From an uncultured Clostridia bacterium (GTDB taxonomy: Bacteria > Bacillota > Clostridia > UBA1381), in contig CANQIP010000010.1 of assembly GCA_947623955.1 (NCBI GenBank), positions 19,696-51,695 of the forward strand: DNA of 32,000 nt. Direction: 5' to 3'. Position 1 is the first letter of the stretch. Each line of letters starts with the position of its first letter. Positions 29,262 to 32,000 of this stretch are shown here, in pieces. The notes beneath the pieces are model-generated. The model searched no databases, was not told where the DNA came from, and was given only the letters and a program-made list of their open reading frames with translations. A program made the position numbers and the translations under genes.

Positions 29262-32000
29262 ATGCCTGCAAAGGCACAGAGAATATTTGATTTGCTTCAG
29301 GAAACGTCATCTTCCCTGTCTGACCGCGATAACTGGATAAGATTTCTGAAAACGGCGGCATGGCAATATAAGTATCCGTTTGCAGACCAGATACTAATCT
29401 ACGCTCAGCGTCCCGATGCGACAGCTTGCGCTCGGATTGAGGTTTGGAACAACAGTCTGCACAGGCGCGTGGATCGCGGTGCGAAGGGTATTGCCCTCTT
29501 GCGTGAGAATGGTAATCGGTACGGGTTGGAATATGTATTCGATGTTTCCGATACGCATGACCAATTCTATCGTGGCTTAAGATTGTGGAAATATAACGAG
29601 CGGTACGCCGATGCGGTTATAGAAACGCTTGAAAGCAGTTTCGGCGAACTGCAGTCGAGTAATACAATTCACGAAGCGATTTTGTCGGCGGCGCATAATG
29701 CGGTACAGGATAATAAGGGAGATTACATACATGAGCTTAAATACGCGAAACGCGGCAGCTTTTTGAGCGGACTCGATGACGTGAACCTCGACTTGCGGTT
29801 TCGGCAGACTGCCGAAGCATCGGTCGCGTATATGATTATGGAGCGTATGGGTTTAAATCCCGAAACCGTGATAGACAGCGAGGATTTTGAGCATATACGG
29901 GATTTTAATACCAAGGAAACGATTGACGTACTCGGCGGCGCGGTAAGTGCTATTTCCGAAACGGCGTTAAGAAACATTTCCGAAACTATACGCGCCGAAC
30001 AGAGAAAATTTGCACAATCGCGGAGCACCATATATAATGTAAACAAATCAAATATTTCAGAAAGAGGTGACAAACATGGCGGAGGTAGCATACAAGACAG
30101 TGGGCGATTATCAGCTTCCCGACCTGACAGTGCCGACGGAGGAATACAGCTTGGGCAAGTACGGAATGATGCGACGGACGTATCTGAAGAACAGCAGACC
30201 GATACTGTACTCGTCAATGCTGACGAGCGGGACGCTGCTCGAACACTTGCGGGAAGTGGACAAGACAGCGTCGGAGCAGGTACAGAGGGCAGTCGAACAG
30301 ATGGCGAAAGCCGAGGGAACGACGGAGGAAATGAAAGCGAACAATCCGTTGAAATGGACAGGGTTAATGAACAATTTGCTCCATTCGGCGGAGGAGTCGG
30401 TTCTGAAAGAACTGGTATTCAGCTAACACTGTTCGATATGCCCTTGCCCACGGCAGAGGAGCAGGAAGAAAACCTACGAAAAACGGAGCAAACACGCCCC
30501 GTTTTTTTGTTGCCGCAACAGATTATCGACGAGGTTTTGACAAGCGGTGCCAATAACCGCGACAGCATTATAAACATTTGCGTTGAGTACAGTAAAGATA
30601 AATCATCCGATGAAAATATATCGTTTCTTAAAGACGAATACAAAATGGGCGGCAAGGGATTTATTTTCGACGGTACGAAGGTGTCAGCATGGTGGAACGA
30701 CGAGGGTATCCGCATAGCATACGGCGATACGGCAGTCGGCAGAGGACAGCTTCTCACATGGGAGCAGGCGGACAGCCGTATCAAGGAATTACTCGAACTC
30801 GGCAGATTTGCGCCGCAGGAAACGCTTGATGATATGGGCGAATTTGAACGCAAAAAAGCAGCAAGCGCATTTTGGTATATGCACCGAGATGTTAATTTTG
30901 ACGATTATTCGGGATATAGAGAACTGTTTGATGAAGCGTGGTTTAATGGCGGCTATCCCGACAGCACGGCGCGGATTACGGAATTGCTGTATGAACCGGA
31001 GGAATTGGACAAATTTATCGAAGTCACATCAACTCTTGCAGAAGCGTATCAGAATAACCGTGATACTATGCGTTTCAGTATGTATTCACCTGACAGCGTT
31101 TTGCGGCTGTTAAAGGATTTGCAGCTTGAACGGCTGCATTTTACGGCTGACGAATATCAGGTTAGTAACGCGGCGCGGTTTATTACCGAGGATGAGATAA
31201 ATAAGATGTTTACCCGCGGAAGCGGCATGGAAAGCGGTAAAATACGCATTTATCTGTACTTTCAGGAGCATACCGACTTAAGTGAGCGTATCAAGTTTTT
31301 AAGGGATGAATACGGCACAGGCGGTTATAGCGGCGGATTGTTTAATGAATGGCATGACACCAAAGGTATTGATTTCAGTCGCAGTGATATTTTATCACCG
31401 CTTGCCAAGGTGACGCTTACTTGGAATAATGTTGCAAAACGTATTGACAGTCTTATCAAAACCGGTAAATATCTTACCGAGCGCGAAATTGCCGAGGAAA
31501 TTCCAAAGTATAACGCGGAGCAAGAGCGGTTACGTATACGCTCGGAGCAGATTAAATTTCTTAACAATAGCAGAGAATTGTCACCGCAGGAACGGCAAAT
31601 GACAATGCCGAAACGACTTGTCTGTTATGTCAATACAATAGATATATCCGAAAAACGGCATTTTGAACGAAACGGATTAGCTGATGTTCTGAACGCAGGC
31701 GAGGCTGAGTTTGCGGAAATAATCAAGGATAATGCAAAGCGAGAACAGATTATCGGCTGTCTGGAGGAAATACAAAGAGCCACAGGCGACGTCCACGCGC
31801 GAAGTCATGCGTATCTGATTGAGAATGACTTAAAGGAATTGCGGACAATTAACCTTACCCGCGTCGGAGATTTCTATGAAGTCTACGGCGACGAAGCTAT
31901 AAAGGCTGCGGAGATTTTGCAGCTTACACTTACGCGTCGGCATACGGACGATGGCGATATAGCTATGACAGGCATACCCGCGTTCGCGTTGGAACGATTT
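29262..32000 (+). CDS. Giant polyvalent protein, N-terminal 913 codons (runs off the right edge)
   Basis: ATG 29262 lies 5 nt after GGGGAGGTGA. I checked every codon from 30000 to 30440 and found no stop, and the frame stays open to 32000. The N-terminus FLKTAAWQYKYPFADQILIYAQRPDATACARIEVWNNSLHRRVDRGAKGIALL is ArdC-N-like (tentative). The last residues LTRVGDFYEVYGDEAIKAAEILQLTLTRR...MTGIPAFALERF match MutS domain I. It is missing from the track because there is no stop. Confidence 0.75.
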   Translation, partial: MPAKAQRIFDLLQETSSSLSDRDNWIRFLKTAAWQYKYPFADQILIYAQRPDATACARIEVWNNSLHRRVDRGAKGIALLRENGNRYGLEYVFDVSDTHDQFYRGLRLWKYNERYADAVIETLESSFGELQSSNTIHEAILSAAHNAVQDNKGDYIHELKYAKRGSFLSGLDDVNLDLRFRQTAEASVAYMIMERMGLNPETVIDSEDFEHIRDFNTKETIDVLGGAVSAISETALRNISETIRAEQRKFAQSRSTIYNVNKSNISERGDKHGGGSIQDSGRLSASRPDSADGGIQLGQVRNDATDVSEEQQTDTVLVNADERDAARTLAGSGQDSVGAGTEGSRTDGESRGNDGGNESEQSVEMDRVNEQFAPFGGGVGSERTGIQLTLFDMPLPTAEEQEENLRKTEQTRPVFLLPQQIIDEVLTSGANNRDSIINICVEYSKDKSSDENISFLKDEYKMGGKGFIFDGTKVSAWWNDEGIRIAYGDTAVGRGQLLTWEQADSRIKELLELGRFAPQETLDDMGEFERKKAASAFWYMHRDVNFDDYSGYRELFDEAWFNGGYPDSTARITELLYEPEELDKFIEVTSTLAEAYQNNRDTMRFSMYSPDSVLRLLKDLQLERLHFTADEYQVSNAARFITEDEINKMFTRGSGMESGKIRIYLYFQEHTDLSERIKFLRDEYGTGGYSGGLFNEWHDTKGIDFSRSDILSPLAKVTLTWNNVAKRIDSLIKTGKYLTEREIAEEIPKYNAEQERLRIRSEQIKFLNNSRELSPQERQMTMPKRLVCYVNTIDISEKRHFERNGLADVLNAGEAEFAEIIKDNAKREQIIGCLEEIQRATGDVHARSHAYLIENDLKELRTINLTRVGDFYEVYGDEAIKAAEILQLTLTRRHTDDGDIAMTGIPAFALERF
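30076..30426 (+). CDS. tnpV: TnpV-family protein, nested in the +1 frame of the giant ORF
   Basis: ATG 30076 lies 8 nt after AAAGAGG: MAEVAYKTVGDYQLPDLTVPTEEYSLGKYGMMRRTYLKNSRPILYSSMLTSGTLLEHLREVDKTASEQV...QMAKAEGTTEEMKANNPLKWTGLMNNLLHSAEESVLKELVFS. This matches my recollection of the TnpV pattern from Tn4451-type clostridial elements. Confidence 0.7.
   Translation: MAEVAYKTVGDYQLPDLTVPTEEYSLGKYGMMRRTYLKNSRPILYSSMLTSGTLLEHLREVDKTASEQVQRAVEQMAKAEGTTEEMKANNPLKWTGLMNNLLHSAEESVLKELVFS

Follow-up and report, generated by a model that had tools for sequence, protein, structure and literature searches.

Here, we explored a 32,000-nucleotide stretch of DNA (hereafter, the window) from an uncultured Clostridia bacterium (GTDB lineage UBA1381; assembly GCA_947623955.1, contig CANQIP010000010.1, positions 19,696 to 51,695 of the forward strand), which contains a mobile element carrying genes for a serine recombinase, RepA_N, ParA and ParB and the 5′ part of a giant open reading frame (ORF). 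A complete gene for a protein of the TnpV family is fully nested within the giant ORF, on the same strand and in its +1 frame, so that 351 nt are shared by both genes. Very likely, one polyvalent protein is translated straight through tnpV, using the frame-0 product as a sequence-independent linker, and TnpV is made separately. Frame 0 would then encode the middle of a disordered spacer of about 160 residues that joins an N-terminal domain (N-domain) to the rest of a giant protein with the order N-domain (possibly ArdC-N-like), spacer, conserved domains and MutS domain I, followed, in full-length relatives, by an N6-adenine methylase and an SNF2 helicase. The residues of the spacer would drift freely, with selection maintaining only openness and hydrophilicity, and the spacer would be kept stop-free because there is no restart site downstream, the remaining 2,000+ residues being made only by ribosomes that read through the overlap. 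In the +1 frame, TnpV, a folded protein of 116 aa, would be started independently at a conserved Shine-Dalgarno site and ATG inside the giant ORF, from the mRNA of the giant gene or, possibly in this lineage, from a shorter transcript. Judging from the comparisons presented below, the polarity of overprinting appears to be reversed: the short embedded frame is constrained and folded, and the long host frame is unconstrained.

Frame 0, read from the ATG at 29262-29264, contains no stop over 913 codons, up to base 32000 at the end of the window (29262..32000, plus strand), as our translation confirmed for the first-pass annotation of this DNA, and continues past the window; the closest full-length relative of the encoded protein comprises about 2,600 aa. 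The ORF is preceded by a Shine-Dalgarno site GGAGG (29249..29253, plus strand) with an 8-nt spacer to the ATG, and this site is adjoined or overlapped by the stop codon (29254-29256) of an upstream gene for a protein of 131 aa. In the AlphaFold2 (AF2) model of the 913 residues, aa 1-252 and 416-913 are confidently predicted (predicted local distance difference test, pLDDT, about 90), and the spacer between them, aa 253-415 (30018..30506, plus strand), is predicted to be disordered: its pLDDT stays below 50 (about 24 on average), and it lacks secondary structure. Residues 272-389 of the spacer are encoded by the same bases as tnpV and, as initially noticed, are rich in Gly, Ser, Asp, Glu and Arg. 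The tnpV coding sequence (30076..30426, plus strand) encodes 116 aa and ends with TAA (30424-30426); the program-made ORF list opens it at GTG 30067, but the start that aligns with all homologues is ATG 30076. The assignment to the TnpV family holds over the full length of the protein (PF14198, E=2.3e-38, 131 bits against a cutoff of 27, profile positions 2-111 of 111; PHROG 24764, E=1e-33). In an alignment of 73 sequences with the window protein as the first row, Y6, P15, G27, Y29, R33, L54, L58, K87, W94, M98 and N99 are invariant, and the AF2 model (pLDDT 88) consists of a beta-hairpin and a helical bundle.

The nested arrangement is widely conserved. When species-level genomes were scanned with the giant protein as the query, each of the 80 genomes kept, the best 80 of at least 550 matches, had tnpV in the +1 frame, flanked by the N-domain and the downstream part, with TnpV homologues of 37-70% identity inside open frame-0 ORFs of up to more than 2,400 aa. 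Sampling of IMG/VR with TnpV alone, a search blind to the giant ORF, yielded 27 nested loci, in all of which the N-domain lies upstream of tnpV in the -1 frame and frame 0 contains no stop, and 31 stand-alone loci, none of them open, with 1-11 stops each; thus sampled regardless of context, about half of the TnpV genes are nested. Conversely, IMG/VR sampling by the N-domain alone recovered 47 loci with an intact N-domain, all with tnpV at +1, even where N-domain identity falls to 25-30%; the N-domain matches without tnpV are only distant proteins of 120-415 aa that share the N-domain core, plus a few truncated fragments. Nested copies on plasmids come from Monoglobus (Clostridia), Cohnella (Bacilli), Anaerococcus prevotii pAPRE01 (Tissierellia, 32% GC) and Selenomonas (Negativicutes), and over these four Bacillota classes the tnpV ORF remains intact at 30-70% protein identity. 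Cultivable carriers include Roseburia inulinivorans DSM 16841 (L045), Agathobaculum butyriciproducens DSM 100391 (L046, L051), Pseudoflavonifractor capillosus ATCC 29799 (L072) and Anaerococcus prevotii DSM 20548 with pAPRE01 (L088). Down to 33% identity, all predicted proteins related to the frame-0 product run from the N-domain across the spacer into the downstream part, and their spacers align nearly without gaps.

Across tnpV, frame 0 is free of stops in all 104 distinct nested copies, which collapse into 49 clusters at 80% and 21 clusters at 70% nucleotide identity, so that many of the lineages are effectively independent at silent sites. By contrast, all 26 distinct stand-alone copies of tnpV carry stops in the equivalent frame (mean 5.0, range 1-14), and the third frame of the 77 nested copies from the genome scan contains 13.6 stops on average. 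The starkest single case of stop avoidance is a nested tnpV of 27% GC (locus L119, 5001-5351), whose third frame has 22 stops and whose frame 0 has none. Composition points the same way. In the window, T occupies the third codon position of tnpV in 6.9% of codons, against 26.8% in the other genes of the element, and when TnpV was re-encoded with the codon usage of those genes, a test confined to the window, frame 0 acquired 8.2 stops on average, with a probability of 1e-4 for none. Across loci, T at codon position 3 of tnpV amounts to 8% in nested copies vs 20% in GC-matched stand-alone ones (p=9e-9), and hydrophobic residues in frame 0 to 11% vs 22% (p=1e-8). Synonymous permutation within each gene, in turn, gave a mean of 2.2 frame-0 stops and a probability of about 0.11 per sequence of remaining open. 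Both ORFs of the pair are thus intact in diverged homologues beyond what composition would provide.

The two frames bear distinct signatures of selection. With an OLGenie-style partition of substitutions (dNN/dSN for TnpV, dNN/dNS for frame 0), omega is 0.20 (CI 0.14-0.29) in the TnpV frame, indicative of purifying selection, and 1.23 (CI 0.89-1.70) in frame 0, where no purifying selection at the amino-acid level is detected. Of the suppression of synonymous rates in both frames, which the first-pass annotation proposed to look for, none is attributable to frame 0 at the amino-acid level: TnpV is constrained, and frame 0 shows only stop avoidance and a bias in composition. The case for the translation of frame 0 therefore rests on stop avoidance, composition, the absence of a restart and the conservation of flanking domains in one frame. 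On the sequence evidence, the frame-0 residues evolve neutrally while the frame itself stays stop-free, poor in T and hydrophilic. One residue-level constraint from frame 0 is hinted at by the motif QLTLF (30420..30434, plus strand), which straddles the tnpV stop codon: of the 105 nested loci, 26 have QL[STDN]LF no more than 20 aa from the tnpV stop, where the remainder of the giant ORFs would predict 0.14, and the 3′ ends of nested tnpV genes favor AGC or AGT followed by the stop, which encodes Q-L in frame 0. QLTLF resembles QL[SD]LF, the consensus for binding to the beta-clamp, and a link with the clamp is conceivable.

Taken together, the open frame 0, the low omega of TnpV and the predicted disorder of the spacer support the reading, raised in the first-pass annotation as one of two, that tnpV is a true overlapping gene within a disordered linker. 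A variant in which both frames are likewise translated but the spacer is a processing site, cleavage of which frees the N-domain from the enzymatic part, refines rather than contradicts this explanation. The spacer is indeed long, disordered and hydrophilic, and it has been proposed that polyvalent proteins are cleaved to release their functional units, often by a peptidase of their own (PMC5512222, PMC12084326). However, neither in the portion of the protein encoded in the window nor in the scanned homologous giant ORFs was a peptidase domain detected, and no cleavage motif is conserved except QL[ST]LF, present in one quarter of the loci; we consider such processing unlikely.

The start signals of tnpV bear on a further alternative, in which no free TnpV is made and programmed ribosomal frameshifting produces a fusion instead, either of the N-domain with TnpV (a shift into +1 close to the Shine-Dalgarno-like site) or of TnpV with the downstream part (a shift back to frame 0 ahead of the tnpV stop). 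The ribosome-binding site initially noticed, AAAGAGG followed by 8 nt and ATG 30076, lies at 30061..30067 (plus strand) and is not peculiar to this copy: an ATG at the aligned position with a GAAAGGAG-type Shine-Dalgarno site 6-9 nt upstream is present in 81 of 81 loci. In frame 0, the site reads Glu-Arg, and because the Shine-Dalgarno site is conserved, so is this pair, E267 and R268 being invariant in an alignment of 19 sequences and at least 90% conserved among 74 aligned homologues. Shine-Dalgarno-like sequences within ORFs stimulate frameshifting in prfB and dnaX, and the conserved element just upstream of the frame change could be taken in this sense. Yet, the aligned ATG is universal among these loci, and the spacing between the Shine-Dalgarno site and the ATG is not conserved. 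Furthermore, in 9 loci, only 0-3 nt separate the ATG from the nearest upstream stop in the tnpV frame, and in 23 loci, at most 30 nt do; given the former, a conserved fusion of the N-domain with TnpV is impossible. For the shift back to frame 0, none of the 104 loci contains an X_XXY_YYZ heptamer in the final 90 nt of tnpV. Frameshifting thus appears very unlikely.

The other reading raised in the first-pass annotation, namely, that the giant ORF is in fact two genes, independent of tnpV and of each other, of which the downstream one restarts near ATG 30438, with frame 0 open by chance or, as may be added, owing to the codon composition of tnpV, did not survive the comparison. It would accommodate the lack of amino-acid-level constraint in frame 0 (omega about 1.2), the scarcity of T-ending codons in nested tnpV, which alone raises the probability of an open frame to about 0.11, and the GenBank and RefSeq gene models, in which TnpV is followed by a gene that starts inside or after tnpV. 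Nevertheless, an open frame in all 104 nested copies, that is, in 21-49 lineages, vs none of the 26 stand-alone copies, the probability of 1e-4 obtained for the window and the depletion of T specifically in nested copies all argue against chance. Moreover, a frame-0 start accompanied by a Shine-Dalgarno site was not found between -60 and +120 nt of the tnpV stop in any of the 104 loci; as originally noted, ATG 30438 in the window has no such site, and the corresponding Met393 is not conserved in homologues. Without a restart after tnpV, the downstream part can be reached only by read-through from the N-domain, so that we regard separate genes as highly improbable. Hardly more credible is the notion that the giant ORF alone is functional and the TnpV-like ORF is an untranslated relic or by-product, which agrees with the older annotation of pAPRE01, where just the giant gene is listed, and with the possible inefficiency of initiation within a translated ORF, but clashes with the TnpV omega of 0.20, the full-length Pfam match (E=2e-38), the ATG and Shine-Dalgarno site in 81 of 81 loci, the confident fold (pLDDT 88) and the integrity of the ORF at 30-70% identity in four Bacillota classes.

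Some considerations weigh against read-through of a giant protein combined with separate synthesis of TnpV. The omega of frame 0 is that of a sequence without purifying selection at the amino-acid level. The homologues are related to one another, and sequence counts accordingly exceed the number of independent events, hence their reduction to 21-49 clusters; the genome scan covers the best 80 of at least 550 matches. Initiation within a translated ORF, as already mentioned, may be inefficient, and an internal promoter-like site is missing in several lineages. Finally, we infer the translation of both frames from comparison and models, and any functional link between TnpV and the giant protein is conjecture. 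The promoter-like site in question, TTTGCA-18 nt-TATAAT (30009..30038, plus strand), lies within the giant ORF, matches the consensus at 10 of 12 positions and has a -10 box that ends 37 nt upstream of the tnpV ATG; in this lineage, it may be an internal promoter for a transcript of tnpV alone. Sites that score at least 9/12 are found upstream of tnpV in 30 of 70 loci vs 3.6% of control windows and are missing from some lineages, and given this count, we rejected an internal promoter as a universal feature of the arrangement.

Nested out-of-frame genes are already known as a class; what is unusual here is the unconstrained host frame. The comS gene of Bacillus subtilis, which encodes 46 aa and is present in one lineage, lies out of frame inside a folded enzymatic module of srfAB. 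The two cases share a small gene with its own start signals that is wholly contained, on the same strand and in another frame, in a very large ORF; expression of comS is coupled to that of the large operon, as would be that of tnpV. Unlike comS, the gene described here encodes a 116-aa protein of a Pfam family, is hosted by a disordered spacer (omega about 1) and occurs on mobile elements across four classes of Bacillota. Among phages, Rz/Rz1 of lambda and the pairs E within D and B within A of phiX174 are nested same-strand, out-of-frame pairs with independent initiation and selection in both frames. The embedded genes of phages are usually taken to be the younger, overprinted ones, and genome compaction is usually invoked. 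In the present case, unlike in these phage pairs, the embedded frame is strongly constrained and is also widespread as a stand-alone gene. The stand-alone relatives include TnpV of Tn4451/Tn4453 and of Tn6104-6106 of C. difficile, which belong to the same family as the window TnpV (PMC3158075), and PF14198 proteins of MOBQ2 mobilizable elements (PMC12084326); like the window gene, they are invariably carried by mobile elements. In these Tn4451-type and MOBQ2 settings, tnpV adjoins genes for a large serine recombinase, a relaxase or antibiotic resistance, and the equivalent of frame 0 is interrupted by 1-14 stops.

In bacteria, long overlaps between genes of the same strand are commonly regarded as annotation errors; the preprint 10.1101/724807, in a statement that cites Palleja et al., says of all 715 studied cases in which co-directional genes share more than 60 bp that they “seem non-existing”. 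Public records mirror this attitude: four GenBank or RefSeq records cover both genes, and each loses either the N-domain or TnpV from its list of proteins. The GenBank record of the closest relative (L148, 8001-15085) lists TnpV and a giant gene that starts inside tnpV, and a RefSeq record from Selenomonas (L089, 3968-8264) lists TnpV and an SNF2 protein that starts after tnpV; in both, the N-domain, about 240-270 aa, is unannotated. For pAPRE01 (L088, 3061-8270), only the giant gene is given, and for L081 (5992-6345), the PLSDB gene table lists TnpV only. In the literature on TnpV, PF14198, polyvalent proteins and surveys of overlapping genes, mostly open papers, we found no account of the nesting, and a prior description is possible. 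The 351-nt pair described here, carried by mobile elements of gut Clostridia and of three other classes of Bacillota, has unusually clean comparative support. It is a natural case in which a constrained gene, read in its other frame, specifies a disordered linker, and is of use for models of overlap evolution and for the design of synthetic overlaps.

The direction of evolution may have been either of two: a frame-0 spacer came to be read through a pre-existing tnpV, or stand-alone tnpV genes escaped from the nest. In a neighbor-joining tree of 131 TnpV proteins, nested and stand-alone copies are interleaved, with at least 9 changes of state; this tree, built from 114 columns with no support values, is weak for polarity and was not relied upon in this respect. 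No unfused ancestor, with an N-domain gene, tnpV and a downstream gene that has its own start, was found; three candidates for this state (L181, L190 and L162) were rejected as truncated fragments or contig ends. Decayed copies do exist (L139/L183, L194, L181 and L190), displaying truncated tnpV with frame-0 stops, a stop in the N-domain, or N-domain fragments fused to unrelated sequence. We entertain, as a rather doubtful scenario, that nesting is the main, possibly ancestral, form of TnpV carriage and couples TnpV functionally to the giant protein, that stand-alone Tn4451-type genes are escapees that gained frame-0 stops, that the output of TnpV depends on the flow of ribosomes along the giant ORF or on an internal promoter, and that TnpV acts together with the N-domain or the whole polyvalent protein during establishment in a new host. 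In any case, the physical association of the TnpV family with polyvalent anti-defense or establishment proteins offers a lead to the role of TnpV.

Stand-alone copies on plasmids contain 3-14 stops in the equivalent of frame 0 and lie beside tet(O/W/32/O), aac(6′)-aph(2″) or a serine recombinase gene. Those next to tet(O/W/32/O) and aac(6′)-Ie/aph(2″)-Ia comprise L082, L083 and the plasmid matches H4-H19, and the resistance-linked copies reside on plasmids of Campylobacter, Enterococcus, Streptococcus, Ligilactobacillus, Salmonella, Klebsiella, Enterobacter and Citrobacter, a range that points to recent spread across phyla together with resistance cassettes. Separately, three loci of the typically clostridial element (L062, L068 and L075) are labeled Thermoguttaceae, Gastranaerophilaceae or Bacteroidaceae, which could reflect either contamination during binning or genuine cross-phylum transfer.

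Apart from the overlap, the giant ORF fits what is known of polyvalent proteins of conjugative elements and phages, as described by Iyer et al. 2017 (PMC5512222), a paper in which neither “TnpV” nor “overlapping” occurs. Indeed, encoded on a mobile element, it combines in a single chain several conflict-related domains that are unrelated to one another and, like the proteins in that study, is giant and multidomain, with an N-terminal domain in the ArdC-N-type position, MutS-I and, in full-length relatives, a methylase-helicase pair. The N-domain (aa 1-252, 29262..30017, plus strand), with helices preceding a beta-sheet core, is kept in all homologues, and this topology in the AF2 model agrees with the published description of ArdC-N. 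Unlike the published proteins, the N-domain of the window copy is unrecognized by the Pfam ArdcN model: it has no match in Pfam (E up to 1), NCBIfam or PHROG, and PF08401 (ArdcN) matched weakly in 2 of 27 homologues (best E=0.005). A profile search of the Protein Data Bank (PDB) and a Foldseek search with the whole 913-aa model produced no ArdC match either, the single match of the profile search being spurious and that of Foldseek being to MutS domain I. Thus, of the first-pass description of this region as ArdC-N-like, the conserved domain stands and the label becomes tentative, the N-domain being possibly a distant relative of ArdC-N. Beyond the spacer, a folded region of an unnamed family (aa 416-859, 30507..31838, plus strand) is conserved in homologues and matches PHROG 38613 over a part of its length (E=5e-20; pLDDT about 90). 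It is followed by MutS domain I (aa 860-913, 31839..32000, plus strand; Pfam MutS_I, E=1.5e-9; Foldseek to MutS structures, probability 1.00), which ends at the window edge. A Pfam scan of homologous giant ORFs, some of them cut by a stop or a contig end, identified an Eco57I/N6 methylase, SNF2/ResIII and Helicase_C, which in the window copy would lie beyond the window end; at L148, MutS_I, an Eco57I-type methylase, SNF2/ResIII and Helicase_C are present.

As for TnpV, its family is typical of mobilizable and conjugative elements, and in the literature its function has only been postulated (PMC3158075). An older proposal likened TnpV to the excisionase Xis of lambda, but the winged-helix fold is not seen in our model; given that a Foldseek search of the PDB returned no match with E below 4, the Xis analogy is unsupported. 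The search of BFVD yielded no significant fold match either; the best hit there, Q8W6J4_2, a stretch of a viral protein of 1,093 aa (probability 0.97, E=0.21, TM 0.46), may represent, going by the modeled structures, a TnpV-like domain that a large protein of a phage carries in frame.

Upstream of the giant ORF, the region 22068-29256, with genes for the serine recombinase, RepA_N/DUF6017, ParA and ParB, small ORFs and the 131-aa ORF, is syntenic with positions 810-7161 of L148, from Lachnospiraceae bacterium MD329; three ORFs of this region (27175-27807, 27810-28853 and 28861-29256) have no family match in Pfam or NCBIfam. Beside the element, on the minus strand of the window at 881-18431, lies a prophage-type block, which may or may not belong to the same element as the giant ORF, with genes for a Mu F-like head protein (6953-8659), an SPP1-type portal (8649-10004), the large terminase (10001-11269), a C5 cytosine methylase (15864-17606) and an N6/N4 methylase (17625-18431), all five on the minus strand.

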